This document shows positions 6,086 through 25,113 of a stretch of 64,000 nt of DNA, one piece after another. The DNA lies in assembly GCA_024642045.1 (NCBI GenBank), contig JAHEBX010000001.1, positions 17,590 through 81,589 on the forward strand. Reading direction: 5' to 3'. Under the pieces are notes generated by a model, which saw nothing but the letters and a program-made list of their open reading frames with translations, was not told the origin of the DNA and searched no databases. A program made the translations under genes and the position numbers. This DNA comes from Pseudorhodobacter sp. (lineage in GTDB: Bacteria; Pseudomonadota; Alphaproteobacteria; Rhodobacterales; Rhodobacteraceae). Within the stretch, counting starts at the first letter, position 1; each line of letters starts with the position of its first letter.

Positions 6086-6100
6086 TTTTGGAACGTTCCA
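6066..6100. promoter_or_regulatory. Tandem LacI-type operators
   Basis: Perfect palindromes ATGGAACGTTCCAT (6066-6079) and TGGAACGTTCCA (6089-6100), central CG, centres 22 bp apart. Confidence 0.8.
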
Positions 6101-6117
6101 TAAATTGTGAGGCTTGG

Positions 6118-8690: not shown

Positions 8691-9454
8691 GCATGCTTCA
8701 CCTAATTCTCCGGGGTCAGATTGCCGAGCTGCGGCTGGATAACCCGCAAAAGATGAACGCCTTTACTGTCGAGATGCTGACCCAGCTGGCCGGTCATCTG
8801 GAGGCGATAGAGCGCGACGCCGGAATTCGCGCGGTGATGATTACCGCCGAAGGCAACCGCGCCTTTTGCACCGGCGCTGACATCAGCGCCTGGGCCAACC
8901 TGTCAGCGGTGGAATTTGCCCGTCATTGGGTGCGCGATGGCCACCGCATTTTCGACCGGCTTGCGCGGTTGTCCAAGCCGACCATTGCGGTGCTGAACGG
9001 TCATGCCTTTGGCGGCGGGCTGGAACTTGCTGCGGCCTGCGATCTGCGGGTAATGGCGCCCGACGCCAGTCTCGCCCTCCCCGAGGCTGGCGTCGGGATC
9101 GTGCCGGGCTGGTCGGGAACCCAGCGTTTGCTTCGGCTGATGCCCGAAGCCGTGATCAAAGAAATGGCCCTGTTTGGGCATCGCATTACGGCCGCGCGCG
9201 CCTTGGCGATGGGCTTTGTCGCGGCGGTTGACCCAGACCCGCGCGCGGCAGCTAGCGCGTTGCTGGACCGTGCCATCGGGCTGTCGCCACGCGCGGTTGA
9301 GATCACCAAATCGATGATCCACGCCAGCGCGGGCGAAGACCGCGGCGCTATGGTCGAAGCTTTGGGCAGCGCTGCGATTGCTGCAAGCGACGACCGCGAG
9401 GAAGGTGTCAGCGCCTTTCTGCAAAAGCGCAAACCTGAGTTTAAGGGGAACTGA
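8687..9454 (+). CDS. Enoyl-CoA hydratase/isomerase family protein
   Basis: AFCTGADI, GGGLELAAACD and LPEAGVGIVPG motifs (both catalytic Glu present); ATGA overlap. Confidence 0.9.
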   Translation: MSMLHLILRGQIAELRLDNPQKMNAFTVEMLTQLAGHLEAIERDAGIRAVMITAEGNRAFCTGADISAWANLSAVEFARHWVRDGHRIFDRLARLSKPTIAVLNGHAFGGGLELAAACDLRVMAPDASLALPEAGVGIVPGWSGTQRLLRLMPEAVIKEMALFGHRITAARALAMGFVAAVDPDPRAAASALLDRAIGLSPRAVEITKSMIHASAGEDRGAMVEALGSAAIAASDDREEGVSAFLQKRKPEFKGN

Positions 9455-9455
9455 C

Positions 9456-10988
9456 ATGCTTGACCTTACGGTGATCACTGAAGCGACGATTGCGGTGCCA
9501 AATAAACCCTATCGCGCCAGACACTTCATTGCGGGGGCCTATTGCAACAGCGCCGACGGGGCGGTTTCTGAACGCATTTCGCCGTCGCATGGGGTCGTCG
9601 CCAGTATCTCTGCCAAAGGCGGCGCAGCAGAGGCCGAGGCGGCTATTGCAGCGGCAAGAACTGCCTTTGACGATGGCCGTTGGAGCGATGTGCCGGCGCG
9701 TGCACGGGCGAAAGTTCTGAACAAGGTGGCCGATCTGATCGAGGCGAATGTAGAGCGGCTTGCTTTGATCGAAACCATGGAAACGGGCAAGCCGATCAGC
9801 CAGTCGCGCGGGGAATGTGGCGGCGCGGCGGACCTTTGGCGTTACGCAGCCTCGCTTGCCCGCACGTCGCACGGCGACAGCCATAACACCTTGGGCAAGG
9901 ACATTCTGGCGGTCGTGACCAAAGAGCCGATCGGGGTTGTTTCCATCATCACGCCTTGGAATTTCCCGTTCTGGATCCTGAGCCAAAAGCTGCCCTTTGC
10001 GCTGGCCGCTGGTTGTACCTGCGTTGTGAAGCCTTCGGAAATCACCCCATCAACCACCGCGATGCTGGCCGAATTTCTGATCGAGGCGGGGCTGCCCAAA
10101 GGCGTGTGCAACATTGTTCTGGGCGCTGGAAACCCCATCGGCAGCCTGATGAGCACGCATAGCGACGTGGATATGATCACCTTTACCGGCTCGACAGGCG
10201 TGGGCAAGATCATCAGCCAAGCGGCGGCGAATACGCTCAAAAAGGTTGCGTTGGAGTTGGGCGGAAAAAACCCGCAGGTGGTGTTTTCCGATGCCGATCT
10301 GGATCAAGCCGCAGACGCGATTGCCTTTGGCGTCTATTTCAACGTCGGGCAGTGCTGCAATTCCTCGAGCCGCATTATCGTGCATGAGGATATCGCCAAG
10401 GATCTGGTCGAGCGGGTGGTGGCCCTCACGCGGCATGTGCGTTTCGGCAACCCTCTCCATCCTGACACGCAGGTGGGCGCGATTGTAACGCCGGAACATA
10501 ACGGCTCGATTGACGCCCATGTGCGCGCGGCGGTGCGCGCGGGGGCGACGCTGCGGTTGGGCGGCGCGCCGATGGTGGTCGACGGCCTTGGCCAGCAGTT
10601 CTATCAGCCGACCATTCTGACGGGGGTCACCGCAGAGATGCCGATCGCCAGCAGCGAAGTCTTCGGTCCCGTGCTGACCGTGCTGACCTTTCGCACAATG
10701 GACGAGGCGATCGCGCTGACCAATGGCACCACCTACGGCCTTTCCGCCGGGGTCTGGAGCGAAAACGTTCACACCTGTCTTGAATTCAGCCGACGCGCCC
10801 AAGCGGGCACGGTCTGGACCAACACCTGGATGGACGGGTTTCCCGAACTCGCCTTTGGCGGGGTTAAGCAATCCGGCCAGGGACGCGAGATCGGCTCTTA
10901 CGGTTACGACGAATTCCTTGAGGTGAAATCGCACGTCCTGCGCATCGGTCGCACGCGCGCGCCTTGGGTGAAGACCCCGTCGGCCTGA
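9456..10988 (+). CDS. NAD-dependent aldehyde dehydrogenase, sorbosone dehydrogenase-like
   Basis: [25 protein letters not shown] catalytic Cys and EVFGP motifs; subfamily assigned from recalled similarity. Confidence 0.88.
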
Positions 10989-11032
10989 ATGCCGACGGAC
11001 CAAAAGACATAGATCAACTGGGAGGAAGTCTA

Positions 11033-12283
11033 ATGCGTATTATTGGAAAGAAGATGTCGGTGGTTCTGGCGCTTATGGCCAGCACCTCTATGGCGCAGGC
11101 CGAGGATGTCGAGGTGCTGCACTGGTGGACCTCGGGTGGTGAGGCGGCGGCGCTGGGTGTGCTGAAAGACACGCTGAAAAGCCAAGGCATCGGCTGGATC
11201 GACATGCCGGTTTCGGGCGGCGGTGGCGAGGCGGCAATGACCACGCTGCGCGCGCGTGTCACCGCGGGCAACCCACCGACCGCCGTGCAGATGCTCGGCT
11301 TTGACATTCAGGACTGGGCCGCCGAGGGGGCGCTGGGCAATCTGGATGACGTGGCCGCCAAGGAAGGATGGGACGCCGTCGTGCCCCCCGCGCTTCAGGC
11401 CTTTTCCAAGTATGACGGCCACTGGATCGCGGCCCCTGTGAACGTGCATTCGACCAACTGGGTCTGGGCCAACAAGGCGGTTCTTGATGGTTTGGGGATC
11501 GCTCAACCAACCACCTGGGACGAGTTTGTTGCCGCGATGCAAAAGGTCAAGGACTCGGGTAAAACGGCCTTGGCCCATGGTGGCCAGCCTTGGCAAGAGG
11601 CCACCGTGTTTGACGGCGTGGTGTTGTCGGTCGGCGGCACCGAGTTCTACAAAAAGGCCTTTGTCGATCTGGACCCAGAGGCTTTGGGTGGCGCGCAGAT
11701 GGTCGAGGCGTTCAAGCGGATGGAAACGCTGCATTCTTTCACTGACGCCAACTTCTCGGGTCGCGACTGGAACCTGGCCTCGGCTATGGTGATCAATGGC
11801 GATGCGGCCTTCCAGATCATGGGTGACTGGGCCAAGGGCGAGTTCCTGAAGGCGGGCAAAGTGCCGGGCACCGATTTCCTGTGCTTCCGCGTGCCGGGAA
11901 CGGACGGCGATGTCAGCTTCAACTCTGACCAGTTTGCGATGTTCAAGGTCGACTCTGAGGCAGCCAAGGCCGCACAGGCGCAAATGGCCGCAGATATTAT
12001 GTCGCCCACCTTCCAATCCGCGTTTAACGTGGTCAAGGGCTCGGTCCCGGCGCGCACCGATGTGCCAAATACCGCCTTTGACGATTGCGGCAAGAAGGGC
12101 ATGGCTGACCTTGCTGCGGCCTCTGCCTCGGGCAATCTGGTGGGGTCAATGGCGCATGGCCACGCCAACCGTGCTGCGGTCAAGAACGCGATCTATGACG
12201 TTGTGACGGCTGCCTTCAACGGCGAATACGACGCGGAAACGGCAGCCAAAAATCTGGCTGATGCCGTGGCGGCCGCCAAGTAA
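11033..12283 (+). CDS. CUT1 ABC sugar-binding protein 1 (GtsA-like)
   Basis: Signal peptide; [21 protein letters not shown] and [11 protein letters not shown] motifs; RBS GGAGG. Confidence 0.88.
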
Positions 12284-12289
12284 GACTGA

Positions 12290-12318
12290 TTGGGAAAGCG
12301 GCCGGCCCGCTTTCCCAA
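12290..12318 (+). terminator. Perfect 12 bp stem-loop after the binding-protein gene (mRNA-stabilising or attenuating)
   Basis: TTGGGAAAGCGG-CCGGC-CCGCTTTCCCAA. Confidence 0.6.
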
Positions 12319-12387
12319 ACCTGCCGCCCCCAAGCGGGCTTTTCAATTGCAAAGACATCTGTGCCGCGCACAGAAACAGGAGGAACC

Positions 12388-13284
12388 ATGGCATTTTCGA
12401 CCTCTGGCGTGGATATCCGTACCCGCCTTCAGGATTTGATCCCAAAATTGGTTCTGTCTCCGTCCATCGCGGCGATGATGATCTTCGTCTATGGCTTCAT
12501 CGTGTTTACCGTCTATCTCAGCTTTACCAATTCCAAGATGCTGCCCAGCTATGATCTCATAGGTTTTGAGAATTACGCCAAGCTTTGGGCGCTGTCGGCC
12601 TGGTGGACGGCGGTGAGCAACCTTGCGATCTTTGCCTCGCTTTATATCGTGATCTGCACCGCAATCGGACTGACACTCGCCATCCTGCTGGACCAGAAAA
12701 TTCGCGGTGAAGGGGTCTTGCGCCCGATCTACCTTTACCCGATGGCGTTGTCGTTCATCGTGACCGGCACAGCGTGGAAGTGGTTTCTCGACCCCGGAAT
12801 TGGTCTTGAAAATACCATGCACCTTTGGGGCTGGCAGAGTTTCCATTTTGGCTGGATCAAAGATCGTAACATGGCGATCTATACCATCGTCATCGCTGCG
12901 GTCTGGCAAACCTCGGGTTTTGTGATGGCGATGTTTCTGGCCGGGTTGCGCGGGATTGATAACGAAATCCTCAGGGCTGCCCAGATCGACGGGGCCTCTA
13001 ACTGGCAGCTGTATCGCCGGATTGTGATCCCGATGCTGCGGCCGGCCTTCATGTCGGCTTTTGTGATCCTCAGCCATCTGGCGGTGAAATCCTATGACCT
13101 TGTCGTGGCACTGACGGGTGGGGGGCCGGGGCGGGCAACCGAGCTGCCTGCGACCTTCATGTATTCCTATACTTTCACGCGAAATTCGATGGGTATTGGC
13201 GCTTCGAGTGCGGTGATCATGTTGATGACCATCGCGGCGATCATGACCCCTTACCTCTATGCTGAATTGAAGGAGAAGCCCTGA
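12388..13284 (+). CDS. Carbohydrate ABC transporter permease (GtsB-like)
   Basis: PKLVLSPS, multiple TM segments, EAA loop RAAQIDGA; RBS AGGAGG. Confidence 0.9.
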   Translation: MAFSTSGVDIRTRLQDLIPKLVLSPSIAAMMIFVYGFIVFTVYLSFTNSKMLPSYDLIGFENYAKLWALSAWWTAVSNLAIFASLYIVICTAIGLTLAILLDQKIRGEGVLRPIYLYPMALSFIVTGTAWKWFLDPGIGLENTMHLWGWQSFHFGWIKDRNMAIYTIVIAAVWQTSGFVMAMFLAGLRGIDNEILRAAQIDGASNWQLYRRIVIPMLRPAFMSAFVILSHLAVKSYDLVVALTGGGPGRATELPATFMYSYTFTRNSMGIGASSAVIMLMTIAAIMTPYLYAELKEKP

Positions 13285-14162
13285 TGTCTGGAGCAACCCA
13301 AGATACGGCGGTGCGGACCTCTGGCTTCTCCCGGACCCTGATTTACCTTGTGCTGTTGCTGTTTGCGCTGTTTTTCCTGCTGCCGTTCTTTGTGATGCTG
13401 GTGAATTCGCTGAAACCTTTGTCCGAGATTACCGGCGGCAATATGATGGCATTGCCGCAGCATTGGACGATCGAGCCGTGGCTTTCAGCGTGGTCCACAG
13501 CACAGATCGGCGTAGAGCCGACGGGGTTGAAACCCTATTTCGTGAACTCGATCATGATGGTGGTGCCGGCCGTCGCAATCTCGACCGTGTTTGGCGCGCT
13601 GAACGGATATGTGCTGACCAAATGGCGCTTTCGTGGCGATAGCATCCTTTTCGGCCTGATGCTCTTTTCCTGCTTTATCCCGTTTCAGATCGTGCTGATC
13701 CCGATGGCGATGGTCTTGGGCAAAATCGGCCTGGCCGGATCGGTGCAAGGCCTGGTGCTGGTCCATGTGGTCTATGGCATTGGGTTCACCACGCTCTACT
13801 ACCGCAACTATTACGCCTCGTTCCCGACCGAGCTGGTTCGCGCCGCGATGATCGACGGGGCAGGGTTCTTTCGCATCTTTTGGCGGATCATGCTGCCCGT
13901 TTCTGGCCCGATCACTGTGGTCTCGGTGATCTGGCAGTTCACCAATATCTGGAATGACTTTCTGTTCGGGGCCTCATTCGGCGGGCAAAGCCAGCCGATG
14001 ACCGTGGCCCTGAACAACCTCGTGCAATCCTCGACGGGCGTTAAGGAATACAACGTCCATTTCGCAGGTGCGATCCTTGCCGCAGTGCCAACCCTCTTTG
14101 TTTACATCGTTGCAGGCCGCTACTTTGTGCGTGGTCTGATGGCAGGAAGCGTCAAAGGATAA
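13284..14162 (+). CDS. Carbohydrate ABC transporter permease (GtsC-like)
   Basis: ELVRAAMIDGAG EAA loop, WQFTNIWNDFLF, GLMAGSVKG. Confidence 0.9.
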   Translation: MSGATQDTAVRTSGFSRTLIYLVLLLFALFFLLPFFVMLVNSLKPLSEITGGNMMALPQHWTIEPWLSAWSTAQIGVEPTGLKPYFVNSIMMVVPAVAISTVFGALNGYVLTKWRFRGDSILFGLMLFSCFIPFQIVLIPMAMVLGKIGLAGSVQGLVLVHVVYGIGFTTLYYRNYYASFPTELVRAAMIDGAGFFRIFWRIMLPVSGPITVVSVIWQFTNIWNDFLFGASFGGQSQPMTVALNNLVQSSTGVKEYNVHFAGAILAAVPTLFVYIVAGRYFVRGLMAGSVKG

Positions 14163-14261
14163 GGCGACCGTCAGGCAGTTGCAGCCGCCCGACGGTCTTT
14201 CGTTCAACCCTCAGCCCCGTTTGGAACAGACAAGGGCGAACTTTTGAAAAGGAACGACAAA

Positions 14262-15515
14262 ATGCGGCGAATGTCTATGGTCAGTTCACTTGTTTTTGGG
14301 GTGTTTGCCTCTCCCGCGCTTGCACAACCCTCTGTCGAAGTGATGCATTTCTGGACCAGCGGCGGCGAGGCGGCGGCCCTTGGCGCTGTGCGCGATAAGG
14401 TCGTGTCACAGGGCGTGGCATGGGTCGACGCCCCTATCGCAGGGGGCGGCGGCGATCAGGCCAAGACGGCGCTTCAGGCCCGTATTGCCTCGGGCAACCC
14501 ACCAGCGGCCATGCTGATGCTGGGTCAAAACATCATCGATTGGGCGCATGAGGGATTGCTTGGCAATGTCGATGCACTGGCCATGTCCGAAGGCTGGGAC
14601 GCGGTCTTGCCGCAGGCGGTCAAGGATTTCACCAAGATCGACGGCCACTATGTCTCGGTGCCGACCAACGTGCACCGCACCGATATGATCTGGGCCAGCA
14701 AAGCGGCCTTTGACAAGATCGGCGCGCCTTATCCGACAACATGGGACGAGATGAACGCGCTCGCCCCTCGGTTTCTGGCGGCGGGCATCATCCCCTTGGC
14801 GCATGGCGGCCAATCCTGGCAAGAGGCCTATATGTTCGAGGCCGTCGCAATGGGCATTGGGGGCGCCGATTTCTACCGCAAGGCGCTTGTGGATCTGGAT
14901 GACGCCAGCCTGCGCAGCGATACGATGGTTGCCGTGTTTGACGAGATGGCCAAGCTGCGCGGCATGGTCGACAGCAATGCCCCCGGGCGCGACTGGAACC
15001 TTGCCACCGCGATGGTCATCAAAGGTGATGCTGCCATGCAGATCATGGGCGACTGGGCCAAGGGTGAGTTTACCAACGCAGGCAAGACCCCCGGCACCGA
15101 CTACGCCTGCATCCCTGTGCCCAAGGCGAACGGCCAACCCGGCTTTGTGTATCTGGTGAACTCGCTGTCGCTCTTTGCCCAAACCAACCCCGAGGCGGTC
15201 AAAGCACAAGAGGTTCTGGCGAGTGCAATCATGGACAAGGATGTCCAGATTGCGTTCAATAAGGCCAAGGGTGCCATTCCTGCTCGCAATGACGTGGATA
15301 TGTCGGGACTGGATGCCTGCGCGCAAGCTACGGCAAAAGACCTGGCACAAGCTGATGCGGCTGGAACCGCGGTGCCAACATTTGCTGGCACCCATGCGGC
15401 CAACGCGGCCATCGTCGGGGCCGCGACCGATGCGATCACCGAGTTCTTCAACTCTGACGAGACGGCCCAAGAAGGTGCTGCCACTTTGGCGGATGCCATT
15501 CTGGCGGCAAAATAG
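14262..15515 (+). CDS. CUT1 ABC sugar-binding protein 2 (GtsA-like paralogue)
   Basis: Signal peptide; VEVMHFWTSGGE, GRDWNLA and [11 protein letters not shown] motifs. Confidence 0.86.
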   Translation: MRRMSMVSSLVFGVFASPALAQPSVEVMHFWTSGGEAAALGAVRDKVVSQGVAWVDAPIAGGGGDQAKTALQARIASGNPPAAMLMLGQNIIDWAHEGLLGNVDALAMSEGWDAVLPQAVKDFTKIDGHYVSVPTNVHRTDMIWASKAAFDKIGAPYPTTWDEMNALAPRFLAAGIIPLAHGGQSWQEAYMFEAVAMGIGGADFYRKALVDLDDASLRSDTMVAVFDEMAKLRGMVDSNAPGRDWNLATAMVIKGDAAMQIMGDWAKGEFTNAGKTPGTDYACIPVPKANGQPGFVYLVNSLSLFAQTNPEAVKAQEVLASAIMDKDVQIAFNKAKGAIPARNDVDMSGLDACAQATAKDLAQADAAGTAVPTFAGTHAANAAIVGAATDAITEFFNSDETAQEGAATLADAILAAK

Positions 15516-15525
15516 CCTGTCTGCT

Positions 15526-15549
15526 GGCCCCCGCCCTTCGGTGGGGGCC
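15526..15549 (+). terminator. GC-rich stem-loop after the second binding-protein gene
   Basis: GGCCCCCGCC-CTTC-GGTGGGGGCC (one G-U pair); no U tract. Confidence 0.45.
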
Positions 15550-15582
15550 GCTCAAATCGATCACCATAAGGACCGCAACATC

Positions 15583-16695
15583 ATGGGCTTTCTCGATATC
15601 AAAAACGTCACCAAATCCTATGGCAGCGTCAAAGTGCTGCACGAAGTGGATATCGAGGTGCAAGAGGGCGAGTTTCTGGTCCTTGTCGGGCCGTCTGGCT
15701 GCGGTAAATCCACGCTGCTGAACATGATCGCGGGGCTGGAGGTGATTTCCTCGGGCGATATTTCGATCAAGGGGCGGGTGATGAACGGCGTGCATCCGTC
15801 CAAGCGCAATATCGCAATGGTGTTCCAGTCTTACGCGCTTTACCCCAATATGACTGTGGGCCAGAACATGACCTTTGGTCTGGAAATGCACGGCGTACCG
15901 AAACCCGAGCGCGATGCGGCATTGGAGAAGGTCGCAGCGCTCTTGCAGATCACGCCCCTGTTAGAGCGTAAGCCAGGTCAGCTTTCAGGCGGTCAACGCC
16001 AGCGCGTGGCTATGGGGCGCGCGCTTGTGCGCAACCCGGATGTGTTTTTGTTCGACGAGCCGCTCTCCAATCTCGATGCCAAGCTTCGCGTCGATATGCG
16101 TACTGAAATCAAGAAGCTGCACGAGAAGCTCAAGACGACCATCGTCTATGTCACCCACGATCAGATCGAGGCCATGACGCTGTCGACCCGGATCGCGGTG
16201 ATGTATGCAGGCTATGTGCAGCAGCTTGGCACACCCAAGGAAATCTACGACACTCCTGCCAATGTCTATGTGGCAACCTTTATGGGCAGCCCCGCCATGA
16301 ACGTGTTGCCAGCGCACGTGCTGATGCAGGACGATGTTGCGCATGCACGGATCACTGATGCCAATGGGGCCGAGATACTGCTAAAAACGTCACAGCCCAA
16401 TTTGGCAGCTTGGGCGGGCAAAGAGATTTTGTTGGGCATCCGGCCAGAGGCAATCACTGATCCCGAAGGTGCGGACCGCAATTCCAAAAACATCGTGCCG
16501 TTGCGCAATCAGATCAGCGTGACCGAACCCGCCGGGGCGGATACCTTTGTCACCATGACACTTTGTGGCAAAGATGCCGTGGCACGGATGCGCGCCGATG
16601 TCAGCCTGCGCCCGAATGACAGCTTTGAGTTTGCGGTGAATATGGAAAAAGTCGTGGCCTTTGATCCCAAAACCGAAGACCGCATCAAGCCATGA
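15583..16695 (+). CDS. Sugar ABC transporter ATP-binding protein (MalK/GtsD family)
   Basis: GPSGCGKS, LSGGQRQR, FDEPLSNLDAKLR and YVTHDQ motifs, C-terminal TOBE region. Confidence 0.92.
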   Translation: MGFLDIKNVTKSYGSVKVLHEVDIEVQEGEFLVLVGPSGCGKSTLLNMIAGLEVISSGDISIKGRVMNGVHPSKRNIAMVFQSYALYPNMTVGQNMTFGLEMHGVPKPERDAALEKVAALLQITPLLERKPGQLSGGQRQRVAMGRALVRNPDVFLFDEPLSNLDAKLRVDMRTEIKKLHEKLKTTIVYVTHDQIEAMTLSTRIAVMYAGYVQQLGTPKEIYDTPANVYVATFMGSPAMNVLPAHVLMQDDVAHARITDANGAEILLKTSQPNLAAWAGKEILLGIRPEAITDPEGADRNSKNIVPLRNQISVTEPAGADTFVTMTLCGKDAVARMRADVSLRPNDSFEFAVNMEKVVAFDPKTEDRIKP

Positions 16696-18161
16696 CCCCG
16701 GATGTGATCATCATCGGGTCGGGCATGGGCGGGGCCACGCTGGCCGCAGCGCTTGCTCCTACGGGGCGGAGGATTCTGATCCTCGAGCGGGGCGCGCCCT
16801 TGCAACCCTCTGCTGCCGACCGCGACGCAAACGCAATCTTTGGGCGCGGGCAGTTTCGACCGAATGAGACTTGGTACGACGGCGAGGGGCGCGGTTTCAA
16901 TCCGGGCAACTATTATAACGTCGGCGGCAATTCGAAATTCTTTGGTGCGGTGTTTCTGCGCTATCGTTCTGAAGATTTCAGTCCGATCCAGCACCTTGAG
17001 GGGCGCACCCCCGGCTGGCCGATCAGCTATGATGATCTGGAGCCCCATTATCAGCGCGCCGAGACGATGTATCAGATCCGCGGCCAGTTGGGCCAAGACC
17101 CGAGCGAGCCTGCGCACTCGGGCCATTATCCCTATCCACCCGTTCCCGATGAACCCGCGATCGCTGATCTGCGCGCCAGATTGCAACGGCTGGGGCTGCA
17201 CCCCGCCTCATTGCCGCTTGGTGTGGATTTGGAAAAGTGGCTTGCAGGTGGGCAGACGACTTGGGACGCCTATCCCAACACGACCCAAGGCAAGATGGAT
17301 GCCGAAACCATCGGCATCGCCCAGGCGCTTCAGCACGCGAATGTGACGCTGCGCACGGGGCAGGCGGTGCGACGGCTGCTTGCTGACGCCTCGGGTCGCA
17401 TCAGTGGGGTCGAGCTTGAGGGCAGCGGCGAGGTCTTGCAGGCGCCCATAGTGGTGCTAGCCGCGGGTGCGGTGCAATCGGCCGTGCTCTTGCTGCGCTC
17501 GGGGCTTGCGAATTCATCCGATCAGGTCGGCCGCAATTTCATGAACCACAACACCTCGGCTGTGCTGGCGTTTCATCCGTTGCGGCGCAATCGGTCGGTT
17601 TATCAAAAGACGCTGATGGTCAATGATTTCTACCTCGGCGGCGGGCCGAAAAACGCGCCTTTGGGCAACATCCAGATGCTGGGTAAGATCACAGGCCCGA
17701 TTTTGACTGCGAATGCCCGCTTGCCTCGGGTTCTGGCGAACTTCATCTCGCACAGGACATTGGACCTTTATGCGATGTCCGAAGACCTTCCCGACCCGGA
17801 AAGCCGCATCATGCTGCAAGGCGAGCGGATCGTGATGGATTGGCGGCAAAAGAACTGGGCGGCGCATCTGGTGCTTGTGGCTAAGCTCAAGGCACTGCTG
17901 CGGCGGGCGGGCTATCCGGTTGTGCTTTCAAAGCCCTTTGACAGCCGCACGCCCTCGCATCAATGCGGCACCGCGCGGATGGGGCGCGACGGCACCGGCA
18001 GCGTTGTTGATATCTTTTGCCGCAGTCACGACCACCCCAATCTGTTTATCACCGATGCCTCGGTGTTGCCGACCTCGGCCGCCGTCAACCCGGCGCTGAC
18101 CATTGCCGCGCTGGCCTTGCGCGCGGCCGATCACATCATCGCTACCGATTTTGCTGCCTGA
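16692..18161 (+). CDS. GMC family FAD oxidoreductase 1 (sugar dehydrogenase/oxidase-like)
   Basis: IIGSGMGG, VGGNSKFFG, SHQCGTARMG and VNPALTI (His/Asn pair); no signal peptide. Confidence 0.85.
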   Translation: MTPDVIIIGSGMGGATLAAALAPTGRRILILERGAPLQPSAADRDANAIFGRGQFRPNETWYDGEGRGFNPGNYYNVGGNSKFFGAVFLRYRSEDFSPIQHLEGRTPGWPISYDDLEPHYQRAETMYQIRGQLGQDPSEPAHSGHYPYPPVPDEPAIADLRARLQRLGLHPASLPLGVDLEKWLAGGQTTWDAYPNTTQGKMDAETIGIAQALQHANVTLRTGQAVRRLLADASGRISGVELEGSGEVLQAPIVVLAAGAVQSAVLLLRSGLANSSDQVGRNFMNHNTSAVLAFHPLRRNRSVYQKTLMVNDFYLGGGPKNAPLGNIQMLGKITGPILTANARLPRVLANFISHRTLDLYAMSEDLPDPESRIMLQGERIVMDWRQKNWAAHLVLVAKLKALLRRAGYPVVLSKPFDSRTPSHQCGTARMGRDGTGSVVDIFCRSHDHPNLFITDASVLPTSAAVNPALTIAALALRAADHIIATDFAA

Positions 18162-18177
18162 AGACTGGAGACGCCTC

Positions 18178-19764
18178 GTGCCCGAAGGATTTGATTTCAT
18201 TGTGATCGGCGGCGGATCGGCAGGCTCGGTCGTGGCGGCACGGCTGACCGAGAACCCTTTGGTCAGCGTGTTGCTGATTGAGGCAGGCGGGCGCGACCGC
18301 CATCCGTTTTATCACCTGCCTGCGGGCTTTGCCAAAATGACCAAAGGCATCGGGTCGTGGGGCTGGGAAACCACGCCGCAAAAGCACATGCAAAACAAGG
18401 TGTTCCGCTATACCCAAGCCAAGGTGATCGGCGGCGGGTCTGCGATCAATGCGCAGATCTATACCCGTGGCAACGCCCAGGATTATGACGAGTGGCGGCA
18501 GATGGGCTGCACCGGTTGGGGCTATGACGACGTGCTGCCCTATTTCCGCAAAGCCGAGGATAACGACACCTTTGACAATCGCTTTCACGGCAAGGGCGGC
18601 CCGCTGGGAGTCAGCCAGCCGATAGCACCCCTGCCGATCTGCGAGGCTTATTTCGAGGCCGCGGCCCAGATCGGCATTCCGCGCAACATGGATATCAACG
18701 GCGAGACGCAGGACGGCGTTTGCTATTACCAACTGACCCAACGCCACGCGCGCCGCTCTTCGGCGGCGATGGCCTATCTTGCGCCGAACCGTGGCAGGCC
18801 GAACCTGACGGTGAAAACCGGAGTCGAAGTCCGCCGCCTGATTGTGACTGCGGGCCGTGCCACTGGGGTGGAACTGATGGACGGCCGTCAGTTGATGGCG
18901 GCGCAAGAGGTCGTGCTGTCCAGCGGTGCTATCGGCACGCCGCGCCTGTTGCAGCTTTCGGGGATTGGACCCGCCGATCATCTCCAGGCCCTCGGGATCA
19001 AGGTCGTTTTCGATCAGCCGCAGGTCGGTGAAAATCTGCAAGACCATCTGGACCTTTACTGCATCGCCGAGCTTTCTGGGCCCTACAGTTATGACCGCTT
19101 TGCCAAGCCGCATCTGGCGGCACTGGCGGGTCTGCAATATCTTTTGCAACGCAAGGGGCCTGTGGCCTCGTCGCTGTTTGAAACCGGTGGCTTTTGGTAT
19201 GCCGACCCCGATGCGCGCTCGCCGGACATTCAGTTTCATCTTGGCCTTGGCACAGGGATCGAGCATGGCGTGGTTGCCATGCCGCAAGGGGGCATCACAT
19301 TGAACTCGTGCTATTTGCGCCCGCGTTCACGCGGGTCGGTGCGGCTGCAATCGGCGGATCCTGCGCAGATGCCGTTGATCGATCCGAATTATCTCTCTGA
19401 TCCCGTTGACCGCGAGATGTCGATCCGTGGCCTGAAACTGACCCAGCAAATCCTGTCGCAACCTGCGCTGAAAGACTTTGTCCTTGCCCAACGGTTGCCC
19501 GGCCCCGAGGTGAAAACCGAGGCGGATTACTTCAACTTTATCAGCCAACATTCGAAAACTTCGCACCATTGCGCCGGCACTTGCCGCATGGGCGCTGATG
19601 CGGCGGCAGTGGTTGATCTGCAGTTGCGCTTTAACGGCATTGCGGGGCTGCGCATTGTCGATAATTCAATTATGCCAAAGGTGATTTCGTCCAATACCAA
19701 CGCGGCAGCGATCATGATCGGCGAAAAGGCTGCCGATATGATCAAAGCCCAGCATGGAGCCTGA
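18178..19764 (+). CDS. GMC family FAD oxidoreductase 2 (choline/sorbose dehydrogenase-like)
   Basis: IGGGSAG, GGGSAINAQIYTRG, VGENLQDH, HHCAGTCRMG and SNTNA motifs; GTG start with GGAG RBS. Confidence 0.88.
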   Translation: MPEGFDFIVIGGGSAGSVVAARLTENPLVSVLLIEAGGRDRHPFYHLPAGFAKMTKGIGSWGWETTPQKHMQNKVFRYTQAKVIGGGSAINAQIYTRGNAQDYDEWRQMGCTGWGYDDVLPYFRKAEDNDTFDNRFHGKGGPLGVSQPIAPLPICEAYFEAAAQIGIPRNMDINGETQDGVCYYQLTQRHARRSSAAMAYLAPNRGRPNLTVKTGVEVRRLIVTAGRATGVELMDGRQLMAAQEVVLSSGAIGTPRLLQLSGIGPADHLQALGIKVVFDQPQVGENLQDHLDLYCIAELSGPYSYDRFAKPHLAALAGLQYLLQRKGPVASSLFETGGFWYADPDARSPDIQFHLGLGTGIEHGVVAMPQGGITLNSCYLRPRSRGSVRLQSADPAQMPLIDPNYLSDPVDREMSIRGLKLTQQILSQPALKDFVLAQRLPGPEVKTEADYFNFISQHSKTSHHCAGTCRMGADAAAVVDLQLRFNGIAGLRIVDNSIMPKVISSNTNAAAIMIGEKAADMIKAQHGA

Positions 19765-19765
19765 T

Positions 19766-20086
19766 ATGATCCGTCACATCGTTCTGATTAAATTTTCCGA
19801 AGGAGTCAGCGAGGCAAAAATCGCCGACCTTTTCACTGAATTGAAGCAGATTGAGAGCAAACTTGCCGGTCTGCGTGCCATAACGGCAGGGCGGAGCGAA
19901 AGCCCCGAGCAGATGGAGCGCGGCTATATGCACGGCTTTGTTGCTGATTTCGACAGCTGGGCGGATTTGCAGGCCTATCAGGACCACCCAGACCATCAGC
20001 TTTTGGGCAGCAAGCTGGTGGCCCATGCTGTGGGGGGCAAGGATGGGATCTTGTGCTTTGACCTTGAGGTGAACGAGACACGCTAA
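19766..20086 (+). CDS. Dabb family (stress-responsive alpha/beta barrel) protein
   Basis: MIRHIVLIKF, GYMHGFVADF and AYQDHPDH motifs; start 1 bp after the GMC2 stop. Confidence 0.8.
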   Translation: MIRHIVLIKFSEGVSEAKIADLFTELKQIESKLAGLRAITAGRSESPEQMERGYMHGFVADFDSWADLQAYQDHPDHQLLGSKLVAHAVGGKDGILCFDLEVNETR

Positions 20087-20191
20087 CAGGCCAGAAAGTA
20101 TTTCGTTACTCAGGTTGTTGTTTCACCCAAGAACAAAAAGCGTCACAGTCAGTCTGAGAACCTGAGCGACGTGACCGGAGGCCGACGATTC

Positions 20192-21208
20192 ATGACTGCT
20201 GATCGCAGACCGACCATCATAGATGTCGCGCATAAGGCGGGGGTTTCAAAATCGACAGTCAGCCTCGTGCTGCAAAACAGTGCATCGGTGCGCGAAGAAA
20301 CCCGTGTCTTGGTGCGGCAAGCTATGGCGGATCTGAGCTATGTCTATAACCGCGCAGCGGCCAATATGCGGATGTCGAATGCAGGCCTGATTGGTCTTGT
20401 GATCAATGACTTGCGCAACCCCTTCTTTACTGAATTTGCAACATCCTTGCAGATGGCGCTTTCGGCGCGCGGCTATGCCGTCGTGATCGCCAATACCGAT
20501 GAAGACGCCGGTTTGCAGGCGCGCACCATTGGCACAATGATTGAACATGGCGTGTCGGCCTTTATCATCTCGCCTGCCTACGGCGAAGTCGTGCCCGCCT
20601 TTGACGCGATGTTGCGCGCGGGCGTTCCGACAATGCAGGTCCTGCGTAAGGTTGATGGCCGAACCGGGCAGTTTCCCTTTGCCGGGCCCAACTACCCAGA
20701 GGGCAGCACGCTTGCAACGCGGCATCTTTTGGCGCAGGGCGCACGGCGGATTGCCTTTGTCGGCGGGCTTGCGGGGCGCGCGGTAACTCAGGAACGCATG
20801 TCGGGGTATCTGGAGGTGCTGCGCGCCGAAGGGATAGAGCCGCTGGTTCTGTCTGGAAAATCCTCACGCGCCTTTGGCCGCGAGATGGCGCATCAGCTGG
20901 CGCAGCAACACCCCGACTGTGATGCGGCACTTTGCTTTAACGACCTGGTGGCGCTGGGCATGTTGGTTGGGTGTAACGAGCTGGGTCGCAAGGTTGGGCC
21001 AAATTTCAAGATCGTCGGCTTTGACGACATCGAAGACGCAGCGCAAGCCTTTCCAACACTCAGCTCGGTGCGCTGCGATGTGGCGGGGTTTGGTCGACAG
21101 ATCGCAGCGACCGTCTTGGACTGGCTGGAAAACGGCGTGGTGCCCGCCGCCGAAAGCCGATCTGTCGTGCAATTGATCGAGCGGCAGTCCAGCACCACTG
21201 GGGCCTAG
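20192..21208 (+). CDS. LacI family transcriptional regulator
   Basis: PTIIDVAHKAGVSKSTVSLVL HTH, YVYNRAAANMR hinge, NPFF and VGFDDI motifs; RBS GGAGG. Confidence 0.93.
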   Translation: MTADRRPTIIDVAHKAGVSKSTVSLVLQNSASVREETRVLVRQAMADLSYVYNRAAANMRMSNAGLIGLVINDLRNPFFTEFATSLQMALSARGYAVVIANTDEDAGLQARTIGTMIEHGVSAFIISPAYGEVVPAFDAMLRAGVPTMQVLRKVDGRTGQFPFAGPNYPEGSTLATRHLLAQGARRIAFVGGLAGRAVTQERMSGYLEVLRAEGIEPLVLSGKSSRAFGREMAHQLAQQHPDCDAALCFNDLVALGMLVGCNELGRKVGPNFKIVGFDDIEDAAQAFPTLSSVRCDVAGFGRQIAATVLDWLENGVVPAAESRSVVQLIERQSSTTGA

Positions 21209-22146
21209 ACCACCATGCCCGACAGCCGCGCGCCCACCTCTTTCGGCACGCGGGCCCCATAATGCTGCAGCACTTCAGCCGCGACGCGCTGCCCAAGCCC
21301 TATCGCCTGTTCGGCACCCAATCCGCGCATCCGTCCGGCAAGGTAGCCTGCATTGAACGCATCGCCCGCACCCGTGGTGTCGCGGATGTTTGCAACGGGC
21401 GGGGTAGGGACCGCGCCTTGGGTCTCGGGCGTGCGAAAATGCACCGCTGCGCTGCCATTCTTGACGACGATCTCTCGCACCCCCGCCCGCGCGAGCCGTG
21501 ACACCGTCGCCGCTGGGTCGGCATCCAGAAAATGCGCGGCCTCGTCGTCGAAACTGGGTAGGGCGATATCGGTCAAGATGAGCATCTGCTGCACCGTATC
21601 GCGGATCTCTTGCGTCGAGCCCCACAGACGCGGGCGGATGTTGGGGTCAAATGCAATCACGGACCCCGCCGCCCGTGCTGACTGCAAAACCGCAAACAAC
21701 CTGCTGCGCGCCTCTGGTGCAAGAATGGCCAGCGTGATCCCCGAAAGATGGATCAAACCCGCCCCGTCGATGGCCGCCGAAAGCGCTGCTGCGTCATTGG
21801 CTAGATGACGCGCCGCAGACTGGCTGCGCCAATAGTGAAAGCTGCGCTCGACCCCATCCAGTTCAATCAGATAAAGCCCCATTGTCCGCGTGCTGTCGCG
21901 CATCAGGCCCGCGGGGTTCAGCCCATCCGCCGCCAGCTCTGCGGCAAAGGCATCGGAAATGGCATCGCACCCCAAGCCGCTGACAAAGCCCAGATCGGCG
22001 CGCGGGCCCAAAAGCTTGGCCATATGCCAGACGGTGTTAAAGGTATCGCCTGCAAAGTTCCGCCGAAAGAGCCCATCGCCCACCGGCGCAAGTTCCACCA
22101 TAGCCTCGCCGATCGCGACCATTTTGGTATTCGCAATCGTGATCAT
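21205..22146 (-). CDS. kdgK: PfkB sugar kinase, 2-keto-3-deoxygluconate kinase-like
   Basis: IGEAMVEL, AGDTFNT, ERSFHYWRSQSAAR, FDPNIRPRLW and DTTGAGDAFNAG motifs typical of KdgK. Confidence 0.75.
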   Translation of the reverse strand: MITIANTKMVAIGEAMVELAPVGDGLFRRNFAGDTFNTVWHMAKLLGPRADLGFVSGLGCDAISDAFAAELAADGLNPAGLMRDSTRTMGLYLIELDGVERSFHYWRSQSAARHLANDAAALSAAIDGAGLIHLSGITLAILAPEARSRLFAVLQSARAAGSVIAFDPNIRPRLWGSTQEIRDTVQQMLILTDIALPSFDDEAAHFLDADPAATVSRLARAGVREIVVKNGSAAVHFRTPETQGAVPTPPVANIRDTTGAGDAFNAGYLAGRMRGLGAEQAIGLGQRVAAEVLQHYGARVPKEVGARLSGMVV

Positions 22147-24224
22147 ACTGCAGAATCCGTCTGTTGTGATTTATAGATGCACCCCATCAGCCAGTCGGGC
22201 CAATCACGCTCGAAAAACGACTTGTCGGCTGCCAAGGTTCGGTTCGGGCGCACCGAAACCTCGATCTTGCCGCTGCGCAGGCGAACCACAAGTTGCTCGG
22301 CCTTGTCCTGCACCTGTTCGTTGCGAAAGCGGAACTCTGTCAAGGCGCCGGATGCTGCCTCGGGCAGGCTCTCGCCAGCGGGATCACAGATCGCCCTTGC
22401 CCCACGACTGCCTCCACCTTTGGCAATATAGGCATCAAGCGCAGCCAGCACGGCCTCTGACGCCAAAGCCATGTGCTGGCGCTGGATCAGCCGCGCACCT
22501 TCGCCCGCGCGATCTGGCCGCAAGCCCTGGCGGCGGATCCGGTCGTTCAGCGCGCGCGCCTCATCCAGCGCCGCCGCGACAGAGGCGGGCGTGCACATGA
22601 TGCCGGCATGTTCACTCATGCGGGCCTGAACGGTATCGCGCAACGTCTGCGCATCCAGCGGGCTATCGGCGCGCAACACTGATTTAAGGTCGGTCACCGC
22701 GCGCAGGTCAGCTATCTGTTCCGGCTTGCCCATCACGGCGCGGCCACTGGCGGCGATATGCTCGGCCACGCGGGTGCCAAAGACCTGGCCCGCATTCAGC
22801 GCAGCACCTCCGGGTCGCGTCACCCCATGAGTGCCCGCAGCCTCGCCAATCGCATAGCAGCCCGCGAGCGTCGTTTGCCCCCAGATATCAACCGAAATAC
22901 CACCATTCATATGCTGGTGATTCACCGCGAATTCCAAAGGCGCCGTGGCAATATCCACCTTGTAGCGGCGGTAAAGTTCAATCGCCAAAGGGTTCATATG
23001 GCGAAGGCGCTCAATCGGTATCGGTTGCACCGCGCCCGCATGTTTCAGATAGCTGCGCACATCATCGTCCAGCCGATCAAGGCTGAACGCCTGATCCCCC
23101 GGCACCGCGACAGGGTTGCGGTTGAAATCCATATACACGCGCCGCCCGGCCTCGCCTTCACGCCAGATTGCCAGATCAATCAGGCTTGATCCGAAATCCA
23201 GCATCCGCGTCGCGTGGAATGGCCATTGATAGCCCTTGCGAAAGATGTTCGAGGCCAACTCTTGCGTCGTGCGATAGTAGGCGGCCAGAAAGTTATGCTC
23301 GCCCCCTTCGGCATCGACCGAATAGATATAGGGGATGGTCTGCACATAGGTGCCCGACAGGTTCCACGGAAAGCCCTCGCGCCGCGTGCCGATACCGAAC
23401 TGGCTCTCGGTCAGATTGATCAGATCCAGCCCCGCCTCCAGCGCCAGACCCAGACTGCCAAAACAACCGTTCGGAAAGACCGAGTCGCGGTAGAGCTCGC
23501 CCGGCCCACCCGCGGCCAGCACCAGAACCGGCGCATGAAACAGCGCCAGACCCAAGGGATTGGCCTCATGGCGGTCTTTCGGGCGAATGGTCAGAACCCC
23601 TTGGGTCTGACGGTCATCGCCCTCGGTGGTGATAATCTTGACGACCGTGGTTTGATTGAAAAACGGAATGCCAAGACGCAGGGCCTCTGCCGCCAAGACC
23701 TTGACCATCAAGCGCGAGGTGCGCGGCCCGCAACTGGTCGCGCGGCCGACCTCGTCATGGTCGGTCTGATAGCGTAAGGTGCCGCCCAGCCTGTCCTGAG
23801 GCAGGGGCAAGCCCAGATATTGCAGCGACGCCATCGCCCGCGCAGAGCCCACTGCCTCGACATAGGCGGTGTCCTCATCCATCGCGCCGCCAGCGCGGAT
23901 CGCACGTGCCATCGCCTGATAGTTGTCGCCTTGGTCTGCAGTGTTGGCCGTGTGCAACGTCTGCTTGTCCGACCCCGAACAAGCCGAGGTTCCCCCCCAT
24001 GCGCTTTGTGAGATGATCGCGACCTTCACCCCGCGCCGATGCAGCTCGACCGCCGCGCGCAAGCCTGCGGCCCCGCTGCCGACAACCAGACACTCGGCAT
24101 TATAGGTGGGCAATGTGTGGCCATCCAAAACGGTCCGGCTGTCTGGTCCGGGCTCTGCCCCAAGGCGGGGCATGTCAATATCGGTCAGTGAATCCAGAAC
24201 CTCTTGCGAAACTTCCGTTTTCAA
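22143..24224 (-). CDS. FAD-binding protein of the succinate dehydrogenase/fumarate reductase/NadB flavoprotein superfamily, unknown substrate
   Basis: VVGSGAAG, HQHMNGG, YAIGEAAGTHGVTRPGG motifs; TTG start with AAGGAG RBS; ATGA overlap with kdgK. Confidence 0.82.
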   Translation of the reverse strand: MKTEVSQEVLDSLTDIDMPRLGAEPGPDSRTVLDGHTLPTYNAECLVVGSGAAGLRAAVELHRRGVKVAIISQSAWGGTSACSGSDKQTLHTANTADQGDNYQAMARAIRAGGAMDEDTAYVEAVGSARAMASLQYLGLPLPQDRLGGTLRYQTDHDEVGRATSCGPRTSRLMVKVLAAEALRLGIPFFNQTTVVKIITTEGDDRQTQGVLTIRPKDRHEANPLGLALFHAPVLVLAAGGPGELYRDSVFPNGCFGSLGLALEAGLDLINLTESQFGIGTRREGFPWNLSGTYVQTIPYIYSVDAEGGEHNFLAAYYRTTQELASNIFRKGYQWPFHATRMLDFGSSLIDLAIWREGEAGRRVYMDFNRNPVAVPGDQAFSLDRLDDDVRSYLKHAGAVQPIPIERLRHMNPLAIELYRRYKVDIATAPLEFAVNHQHMNGGISVDIWGQTTLAGCYAIGEAAGTHGVTRPGGAALNAGQVFGTRVAEHIAASGRAVMGKPEQIADLRAVTDLKSVLRADSPLDAQTLRDTVQARMSEHAGIMCTPASVAAALDEARALNDRIRRQGLRPDRAGEGARLIQRQHMALASEAVLAALDAYIAKGGGSRGARAICDPAGESLPEAASGALTEFRFRNEQVQDKAEQLVVRLRSGKIEVSVRPNRTLAADKSFFERDWPDWLMGCIYKSQQTDSAV

Positions 24225-24282: not shown

Positions 24283-24326
24283 TGGAACGTTCCAATTGCT
24301 ATAGACGCGATAACACATCAGGTCAA
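24283..24326 (-). promoter_or_regulatory. Sigma70-type promoter plus third LacI-type operator for the flavoprotein-kdgK operon
   Basis: Minus strand TTGACC (24326-24321), 17 nt, TATAGC (24303-24298), then TGGAACGTTCCA (24294-24283). Confidence 0.75.
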
Positions 24327-25105: not shown

Positions 25106-25113
25106 CGGCCCTC

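Follow-up and report, generated by a model that had tools for sequence, protein, structure and literature searches.

The fold of the complex II flavoprotein subunit is well studied in bioenergetics, where it is represented by FrdA and SdhA of fumarate reductase and succinate dehydrogenase (E. coli 1KF6, 5VPN and 1NEK; M. smegmatis 7D6V). Here we analyze a 693-residue protein of this fold (FAD_binding_2, complex II flavoprotein type) encoded at positions 22143..24224, minus strand, of a 64,000-nucleotide stretch of Pseudorhodobacter sp. DNA (assembly GCA_024642045.1, contig JAHEBX010000001.1, positions 17,590 to 81,589), hereafter the window. Well studied as the fold is, the flavoprotein is a member of a large uncharacterised clade of complex-II-flavoprotein-like proteins, a branch of hundreds of clusters with a rebuilt active site, found in rhizobia, marine Rhodobacterales, about half of E. 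coli and anaerobes. The clade adds a new functional branch to a known fold without amounting to a system of a new kind, and the gene probably marks an undescribed catabolic step. With a probability of roughly 0.5, we propose that the protein is a substrate-level FAD desaturase or ene-reductase, which acts on a keto- or carboxy-activated anhydro-sugar intermediate and feeds the kinase of the 2-keto-3-deoxygluconate (KDG) type encoded by the adjoining gene.

The closest described systems differ from the flavoprotein in informative ways. FrdA and SdhA share with it the four-domain fold, the FAD motifs, the GE...HGxxR segment and the Arg clamp. However, the identity is 19%, and the flavoprotein lacks the covalent-FAD His, a conserved proton-shuttle Arg and the Fe–S and anchor partners, carries Gly277 and Gln437 at the positions of the cap-domain and substrate-binding His, and has about 40 extra N-terminal residues and invariant motifs of its own. 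L-Aspartate oxidase, NadB (1CHU, 1KNP, 2E5V), is likewise a stand-alone, soluble member of the superfamily with non-covalent FAD, and demonstrates that oxidation by this fold is not limited to C–C bonds. The flavoprotein is about 150 residues longer than NadB, has an SdhA-like C-terminal domain and does not keep the NadB catalytic residues; its context is sugar catabolism, whereas that of NadB is NAD synthesis. The 3-ketosteroid dehydrogenase KstD, of the same FAD_binding_2 superfamily, offers a functional analogy only: it desaturates C1–C2 beside a 3-ketone supplied by a dehydrogenase, which is the logic proposed here. However, its match is limited to flavoprotein residues 40-93 (7P18, E 3e-5), it is not among the top 50 fold matches, and it has neither these helical and C-terminal domains nor an Arg clamp. 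Soluble NADH-dependent fumarate, acrylate and urocanate reductases (Klebsiella FRD, Vibrio ARD, Shewanella UrdA) combine an NADH module resembling old yellow enzyme (OYE) with an FAD_binding_2 domain. Anaerobe members of the present family are similarly paired or fused with OYE-type modules, but FRD, ARD and UrdA belong to a short flavocytochrome-c3-like branch with a covalent-FMN domain, whereas the clade is SdhA-like and has no OYE partner in this genome.

The reading frame and its length, first proposed in an annotation made from the letters of the window alone (the first-pass annotation), are borne out by the translation. The gene begins with a TTG codon (24224-24222), preceded at a spacing of 6 nt by an AAGGAG site (24236-24231), and the long TTG frame is the real one because the N-terminal 21 residues (consensus MxIDVPQxILDALTDVDMPRL) are kept among the homologues. 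Placement in the superfamily is secure at the level of PF00890 (FAD_binding_2), with 105.3 bits against a gathering threshold of 20.4 over residues 46-476 and profile positions 3-414 of 414. In contrast, every curated NCBIfam model for NadB, SdhA, FrdA, TfrA and their relatives failed (40-107 bits against cut-offs of 450-930). The SdhA/FrdA models (TIGR01812, TIGR01816, TIGR01176, NF006686 and others) gave 60-103 bits against 567-933, and the NadB models (TIGR00551, PRK NadB) 41-107 bits against 453-726, with TIGR00551 at 107 bits against 453. By sequence, the solved structures that come closest are mycobacterial SdhA (E 2e-16) and E. coli FrdA, and the alignments to them are limited to the FAD-binding N-terminus and the C-terminal half, leaving the cap region 277-400 unaligned.

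The active site was mapped by alignment alone, using phmmer alignments and an hhalign profile alignment to the genome's own canonical SdhA, which is encoded elsewhere (422 bits) and has RSHTVAAQGG, QFHPTG, HYNMGG and HGANRLG all present. The four motifs listed in the first-pass annotation were all found in the translation. The dinucleotide-binding motif GSGAAG (24063..24080, minus strand; residues 49-54) has G49, G51 and A53 invariant across the 92 family members aligned, and S50, A52 and G54 invariant in 26 close homologues. GTSACSGSD (23967..23993, minus strand; residues 78-86) is homologous to the covalent-FAD segment of SdhA and leads into GSDKQT, of which every residue (G84, S85, D86, K87, Q88, T89) is invariant in the 92 sequences. 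This segment is His-free, as is the whole interval between H62 and H91; hhalign placed the covalent-FAD His of SdhA (in RSHTVAAQGG) in a gap, the corresponding flavoprotein segment being SQSAWGGTSACSGSD. In the cap domain, the QFH of SdhA, FrdA and NadB is replaced by QFG (23394..23402, minus strand; residues 275-277; QFHPTG becomes QFGIGT), so that the position of the catalytic SdhA H242 is occupied by Gly277, which is invariant together with Q275. The sole candidate for the proton-shuttle Arg (SdhA R286) is R340, which varies within the family. The catalytic His/Arg set that NadB shares with FrdA is thus missing as well, given G277, Q437 and no conserved cap Arg.

Two C-terminal motifs had been read as analogues of the catalytic His and Arg of fumarate reductases, and this holds for the Arg but less clearly for the His. 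In HGVTRPGG (22806..22829, minus strand; residues 466-473), R470 aligns with the carboxylate-clamp residue SdhA R399/FrdA R390 and is kept in at least 90% of the 92 sequences. In HQHMNGG (22899..22919, minus strand; residues 436-442), however, the residue aligned with the substrate-binding His of SdhA and FrdA (SdhA H354) is the invariant Gln437, and the His lies one position later; Q437, H438, G441 and G442 are invariant, whereas H436 is variable. Judged from these alignments, the clade appears to have retained one carboxylate clamp (R470, with Q437/H438) and to be without the covalent-FAD His and without the His and Arg of the cap domain, on which catalysis by fumarate reductases and aspartate oxidase depends. 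Motifs specific to the family are invariant in place of these residues across the 92 members, which are 32-83% identical: GSDKQT, YxTDxD, RxxSxGxxTS, WNxSG...Q, KGxxWP, QHxxGG, G...PGG and SRG. The clade can accordingly be defined by a length of about 620-720 residues and by GSDKQT, WN.SG..Q, KG.QWP, QH.NGG, HG..RPGG and GSRG, invariant or nearly so, all of which the window protein has (GSDKQT, WNLSGTYxQ, KGYQWP and QHxNGG in its own versions).

No Fe–S subunit or membrane-anchor gene occurs among the roughly 20 annotated neighbours in the window or in 84 related loci, as the first-pass annotation had noted for this locus. Because the flavinylation-site His, a signal peptide and partner subunits are all absent, the flavoprotein is probably a cytoplasmic enzyme that binds FAD non-covalently, in agreement with that annotation. 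Its label "orphan" is apt in so far as partner subunits are missing, but not as to family size, since the family is very large. Its statement that no characterised member was known also stands: none turned up in Pfam, NCBIfam or the published literature searched, nor in the PDB when compared by either sequence or fold. The sugar-derived enoate or enone that it named as substrate stays hypothetical.

A structural model supports the assignment to the complex II fold. AlphaFold2, run on the alignment of 92 diverse sequences, gave a mean predicted local distance difference test score (pLDDT) of 92.2 and a predicted TM-score (pTM) of 0.93, whereas an earlier alignment of the 26 close homologues had given a poor model (pLDDT 62). 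The predicted structure has all four domains (FAD, cap, helical and C-terminal). Foldseek against the PDB ranked E. coli FrdA first, followed by many SdhA chains (target-normalised TM 0.72-0.82; 19% identity), with reductases of phosphoadenylyl and adenylyl sulfate (PAPS/APS) and NadB at lower ranks; neither a KstD-type enzyme nor anything closer than FrdA/SdhA was in the top 50. The model and this ranking suggest a complete complex-II-flavoprotein-like fold that stands alone.

The stop codon of the flavoprotein gene overlaps the ATG of the downstream kinase gene (21205..22146, minus strand) as ATGA, read directly at 22143-22146, which confirms the coupling noted in the first-pass annotation. 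The kinase is a PfkB sugar-acid kinase of the KdgK clade. Its best match among the PfkB models is the NCBIfam KdgK model NF052444 at 250 bits, below the cut-off of 400, and it is therefore a clade member rather than a certified equivalog. Among PDB entries, it matches KDG kinase 4E69 at 282 bits, KdgK 3LHX at 193 bits and YdjH at 184 bits, compared with about 97 bits for fructokinases, well below the KdgK/YdjH clade matches (250-282 bits). Two PF01081 aldolase genes lie elsewhere in the genome.

The flavoprotein–kinase pair is linked by its operator to a larger operon. A promoter-like TTGACC-N17-TATAGC element, a putative promoter read from the letters, lies at 24326-24298, and just downstream of it, before the flavoprotein gene, is the LacI-type operator palindrome TGGAACGTTCCA (24283..24294). 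The window holds exactly three copies of TGGAACGTTCCA, and the 3.49-Mb assembly as a whole has no more than these, the other two preceding afr (6067, 6089). Since the operator copies are confined to the sites before afr and before the flavoprotein gene, the pair is the second operon of one local regulon. In 11 other loci, too, the operator precedes the flavoprotein orthologue, at a distance of 46-131 bp. The gene for the LacI-family regulator of the locus, with Pfam LacI and Peripla_BP domains (20171..21208, plus strand), is convergent with the kinase gene, and such a regulator sits beside the flavoprotein in about 30 related loci. The co-regulated operon (6088..20086, plus strand) encodes Afr, a family-I CoA-transferase, a crotonase, an aldehyde dehydrogenase (ALDH), a CUT1-type ABC importer with two binding proteins, two GMC enzymes (GMC1 and GMC2) and a Dabb protein. 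Afr is a homologue of 1,5-anhydro-D-fructose reductase, with 313 bits to the crystallised enzyme PDB 2GLX. An assignment of the ALDH as MmsA/IolA, which would have implied an inositol-like pathway end, was rejected in favour of a generic acid-forming ALDH (BADH/HpaE-like).

Related loci and a phyletic profile show which genes travel with the flavoprotein. Relatives are found in more than 570 GTDB species genomes, and the best 80 (about 70% identity) come from Rhizobium, Rhodobacterales, Devosia and Agrobacterium radiobacter; a Rhizobium orthologue is about 72% identical. Of 84 related loci, about 70 have GMC1 and GMC2 adjoining the flavoprotein gene; genes for the ABC importer, ALDH, crotonase and CoA-transferase follow wherever the flank extends far enough. 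In more than 35 loci a gene for a 380-394-residue Gfo/Idh/MocA protein directly precedes the flavoprotein gene. (A 378-residue frame upstream of the flavoprotein in one relative was discarded as a spurious high-GC frame.) A class-wide sample of 201 genomes gave two flavoprotein matches, which was too sparse, and the profile was therefore built on 151 genera of the window's own family, with one genome per genus and Fisher tests. The flavoprotein is present in 18 genera and absent from 133. The CoA-transferase orthologue (31 genera) and GMC1 (33 genera) each accompany it in 17 of the 18 positive genera, and are found in 14 and 16 of the 133 negative ones, respectively; Afr (22 genera) occurs in 7 of the 18 and 15 of the 133. 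The kinase orthologue (12 of 18, p 1e-13) and the 394-residue Gfo (11 of 18, p 2e-12) are found in none of the 133 negative genera and are always adjacent to the flavoprotein gene. As the two occur solely with the flavoprotein and next to it, the three form an add-on module, and the substrate of the kinase evidently exists only where the flavoprotein is present.

The two candidate dehydrogenases are nearly complementary. Among the 18 positive genera, five have Afr only, nine the 394-residue Gfo only, two both and two neither. The Gfo is closest to levoglucosan dehydrogenase (LGDH), with 236 bits to PDB 6A3F-J, identified as such in PMC10066097, and 300 bits against the NCBIfam LevoglcsnDh cut-off of 650. 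Twelve genera (genomes G207, G214, G226, G241, G260, G289, G291, G294, G320, G323, G336 and G346) possess the CoA-transferase/GMC cluster but neither the flavoprotein nor its kinase; Afr is present in 11 of the twelve. Within the cluster-bearing genomes, the association of Afr with the flavoprotein is negative (odds ratio 0.06, p = 0.008), which suggests two alternative branches of one pathway.

The wider family is large, with 432 clusters at 50% identity in an exhaustive search (E < 1e-30), most of them of 600-690 residues; JGI annotates homologues as "succinate dehydrogenase/fumarate reductase flavoprotein". A 56%-identical homologue is encoded in 2631 of 5426 complete E. coli genomes (about 48%), between ytfB and rplI, in an operon of the order TetR, short-chain dehydrogenase/reductase (SDR), sugar-phosphate-isomerase-like TIM barrel, crotonase, CoA-transferase, flavoprotein and MFS transporter (for example L178, NZ_CP027440.1 3516363-3523272). 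The CoA-transferase and the crotonase match those of the window locus at 40% and 33%, and no published characterisation of the E. coli operon was found in the literature searched. We take ytfA of K-12 to be a probable remnant of its TetR gene. Closer outgroups (44-46% identity) have the arrangement TetR–SDR–flavoprotein–PF01261–TRAP. For the distant members, the three nearest genes on each side were counted in 76 metagenome loci, giving an SDR in 35 loci, an aldolase of the KHG type or of the 2-keto-3-deoxy-6-phosphogluconate (KDPG) type in 19, an OYE protein in 17, an OYE–FeS–NAD(P)H reductase fusion in seven and a KDG-kinase-like PfkB protein in 15. A recurrent order is OYE–SDR–Eda–(BNR_4)–flavoprotein–PfkB–(IF-2B), with flavoprotein–Eda–PfkB and GH4–flavoprotein–OYE as single cases among relatives; in one family member the flavoprotein is fused with an Oxidored_FMN domain of the OYE type. 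The E. coli SDR and the anaerobe-cassette SDRs both pass NCBIfam NF009386. Throughout the family, an NAD(P) sugar dehydrogenase is a constant partner, as are a KDG-type kinase and aldolase, whereas the OYE electron-transfer partner appears in anaerobes only. The sugar or sugar-acid context with a KDG-type kinase, proposed for the window from one locus, thus holds here and in distant lineages.

Taken with the chemistry of the superfamily, these partners would fit the following route. An imported 1,5-anhydro-sugar would be activated as a ketone or carboxylate by an NAD(P)-dependent dehydrogenase and/or by C6 oxidation to an acid (GMC2 and ALDH), the dehydrogenase being Afr here, the LGDH-like Gfo in many Rhodobacterales as well as in Rhizobium, and an SDR in other lineages. 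By analogy with the rest of the superfamily, the flavoprotein would then carry out a two-electron C–C redox step on the sugar ring, with hydride transfer to or from FAD N5. Here this may be an α,β C–C desaturation next to the ring oxygen, with hydride passing to N5 (SdhA/3-ketosteroid-dehydrogenase-type chemistry) and R470 holding the substrate carboxylate. Hydration of the resulting cyclic enol ether and opening of the ether ring would yield a 2-keto(-3-deoxy) sugar acid (hexonate), which the coupled kinase would phosphorylate for a KDPG-type aldolase encoded elsewhere in the genome. The substrate may be a 3-keto-anhydroalditol, a 4-keto-2,6-anhydro-aldonate or its CoA ester, none of which is singled out. 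Likewise, schemes were drawn for CoA-dependent dehydration to KDG, for oxidation of an α-alkoxy acid to 2-ketogluconate and for BadI-like ring cleavage, and none was singled out from the sequence. The more specific proposal, that the clade as a whole performs flavin-dependent desaturation of a keto- or carboxy-activated tetrahydropyran ring beside the ring oxygen, as a reaction new to carbohydrate catabolism, is one we advance tentatively and hold to be possible rather than probable.

Two known pathways help to locate such a step. The levoglucosan pathway LgdA–LgdB1–LgdB2–LgdC (PMC10066097) is also an anhydro-sugar route, in which a Gfo/Idh/MocA 3-dehydrogenase is followed by PF01261 TIM barrels acting on a 2-hydroxy-3-keto-glycal. 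The obligate Gfo partner of the flavoprotein is LGDH-like, and PF01261 proteins stand beside the flavoprotein in E. coli and other lineages, although the window regulon has no PF01261 gene. The leaving group at C1 of levoglucosan lets its ring open by β-elimination without a flavoprotein, whereas β-elimination is impossible for 1,5-anhydro-sugars, in which the position beside the ring oxygen bears no leaving group, in contrast to levoglucosan and glycosides. 1,5-Anhydro-alditols would therefore be the compounds for which a desaturase is needed, and its action would produce an enol ether like that of the LGDH pathway, open to cleavage by water. The second pathway is the KDG funnel of uronate catabolism (KduI/KduD or 4-deoxy-5-hexoseulose-uronate (DEH) reductase, KdgK and Eda). 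As in this funnel, the neighbourhoods of the family repeatedly include a KdgK-clade kinase, a KDPG-type aldolase and a KduD-like SDR, but KduI, UxaC and a dehydratase are missing, and upstream stands the flavoprotein with OYE (anaerobes) or with CoA-transferase and crotonase (Proteobacteria).

We note several points that weigh against desaturation of an activated anhydro-sugar. First, the reaction, its direction and its electron acceptor are all matters that we infer. Second, the 12 genera with the CoA-transferase/GMC cluster and no flavoprotein (11 with Afr) imply that the core route can run without the flavoprotein. One can draw a redox-neutral route from a 2,6-anhydro-aldonate to KDG, by way of the CoA-transferase and crotonase, that needs no flavoprotein, and it fits the existence of such clusters, so that the flavoprotein would serve a branch rather than the trunk. 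Third, the 2-keto sugar of Afr alone does not put a ketone where desaturation adjacent to the ring oxygen needs one. Fourth, the anaerobe cassettes are devoid of CoA-transferase and crotonase, and their partners are NAD(P)H-linked, which in these organisms speaks for reduction and against desaturation. With NAD(P)H as the partner, reduction alone is thermodynamically favourable on established redox potentials; ene-reduction is thus the only favourable direction with an NAD(P)H-linked OYE, and the anaerobe members, which have an OYE-type NAD(P)H module as partner or fused domain and presumably run towards reduction, are probably reductases. Finally, the phyletic tests ignore shared ancestry.

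The rival that survives best, which we nevertheless regard as unlikely, extends the reducing direction to the window, with a reduction like that of CaiA in the carnitine pathway acting on an enoate or enoyl-CoA produced by the locus CoA-transferase and crotonase, for a net dehydroxylation of a sugar acid. The trio of CoA-transferase, crotonase and flavoprotein is common to the window locus and the E. coli operon, and the OYE-type pairings and fusions of distant members, together with the thermodynamics just given, would suit it. However, the regulon contains no OYE or other electron donor, and its operator is found nowhere else in the genome. Moreover, reduction of a 2-alkoxy-enoate would neither open the ether ring nor yield a substrate for a KDG-type kinase, and the cassettes that do bear OYE are the ones without CoA-transferase and crotonase.

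Sinorhizobium morelense is said to convert anhydrofructose via anhydromannitol to mannose (as Kuhn and co-workers reportedly described in Appl Environ Microbiol in 2006), the enzyme of the last step, a "C-1 oxygenation", not having been identified. This raises a further alternative, that of an ether C–H dehydrogenase, in which hydride would be taken from C1 of 1,5-anhydro-D-mannitol, the product of Afr, and addition of water would give D-mannose, the kinase then being a hexose kinase. It would account for the reported reaction, it agrees with the Afr homologue in the same regulon and with an Afr or Gfo partner in 16 of the 18 flavoprotein-positive genera, and NadB, of the same superfamily, oxidises a C–N bond via hydride transfer. 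Even so, we consider it improbable: the kinase falls in the KdgK/YdjH keto-acid clade rather than with the fructokinases, the wider family is tied to KDPG aldolase, to SDRs and to TRAP- and MFS-type acid transporters, the retained Arg clamp suggests a carboxylate substrate, and Afr clusters without the flavoprotein exist.

The first-pass annotation had also offered the flavoprotein as an electron sink for the GMC enzymes, that is, a relay that re-oxidises two flavoenzymes and has no organic substrate of its own. GMC1 and GMC2 are indeed its commonest neighbours in the Alphaproteobacteria, and GMC1 resembles catalytic subunits that normally pass electrons to partner subunits. The distribution does not bear this out, and we give the idea very little credence: GMC1 lacks the Cys cluster of its 3Fe–4S-bearing relatives and occurs without the flavoprotein in 16 genera, about 12 genera have the GMC/CoA-transferase cluster and no flavoprotein, the E. 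coli and anaerobe operons have the flavoprotein and no GMC enzyme, the strict dependants of the flavoprotein are the kinase and the Gfo rather than the GMC enzymes, and the substrate-site motifs are invariant across the family. Least credible of all is an ordinary role as L-aspartate oxidase or as the flavoprotein of succinate dehydrogenase or fumarate reductase, since, although the best named matches are NadB, TfrA and SdhA/FrdA and JGI labels homologues accordingly, the scores of 100-107 bits fall far short of the cut-offs (450-930), the covalent His is missing along with the catalytic His and Arg, no Fe–S or anchor genes are nearby and the genome has its canonical SdhA elsewhere; the protein clusters with neither NadB nor SdhA.

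Solving the reaction of the flavoprotein would define a new step, and probably a new route, in the breakdown of carbohydrates by bacteria. The answer could also decide by which route 1,5-anhydro-sugars are degraded, among them anhydrofructose, which derives from glycogen and starch, and 1,5-anhydroglucitol, a dietary and clinical marker; no characterisation of the flavoprotein family was found in the literature on the catabolism of anhydrofructose, anhydromannitol and anhydroglucitol, nor in that on AfrR, on FAD_binding_2 proteins with OYE and on ytfA. If desaturation is correct, it would supply a missing route by which 1,5-anhydro (1-deoxy) sugars and acids without a C1 leaving group are opened into the KDG/Entner–Doudoroff hub, explain the Sinorhizobium "C-1 oxygenation" and give a function to an operon that about half of all E. 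coli strains possess. With orthologues in the tractable hosts non-K-12 E. coli and Rhizobium leguminosarum, the question is open to direct experiment.

Several further observations concern the surroundings of the gene. GMC1 (16692-19764, plus strand) is closest to the catalytic subunits of three-subunit membrane FAD-glucose/fructose dehydrogenases (6A2U, 7W2J), but it has no Cys cluster and neither the small subunit nor the cytochrome subunit of these enzymes; a role for GMC1 as a 3Fe–4S carrier paired with the flavoprotein in the manner of SdhB was rejected on account of the missing Cys cluster. Just upstream of the co-regulated operon, positions 2097-5689 (plus strand) hold a complete cluster for four-carbon acid sugars (threonate/erythronate type), with OtnK (3-oxo-tetronate kinase, 523 bits) and OtnC (3-oxo-tetronate 4-phosphate decarboxylase, 289 bits), both above cut-off, an AP_endonuc_2 isomerase-like gene and a β-hydroxyacid dehydrogenase. 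No OtnK-type genes were seen in the flanks of related loci, which at up to 10 kb are too short for the 16-20 kb spacing in this window. Just upstream of the flavoprotein promoter, at 24383-26703 (minus strand), are overlapping Exo_endo_phos and PLD-type (cardiolipin-synthase-like) genes, which are not kept next to the flavoprotein in other loci; an apparent Exo_endo_phos link between this locus and Rhizobium was dismissed as coincidence, the genes being unrelated. SMc04396 of S. meliloti, a candidate orthologue of a binding protein of the locus, is reported to be dextrin-induced (PMC4960864).

In nine metagenomic anaerobe cassettes (L119, L134, L135, L157, L161, L163, L169, L172 and L125), a lipoprotein-like BNR_4 gene (PF15892) of about 500 residues lies directly upstream of the flavoprotein gene, and in nine an IF-2B/MtnA-like isomerase gene lies downstream of it; neither has an obvious role in a cytoplasmic route of the KDG type. 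Finally, the recorded protein of one 44%-identical homologue (P0125, contig L088) is obtained solely if TGA is read as Trp. This may reflect a source organism that uses genetic code 4 or 25 or, alternatively, an erroneous gene call.

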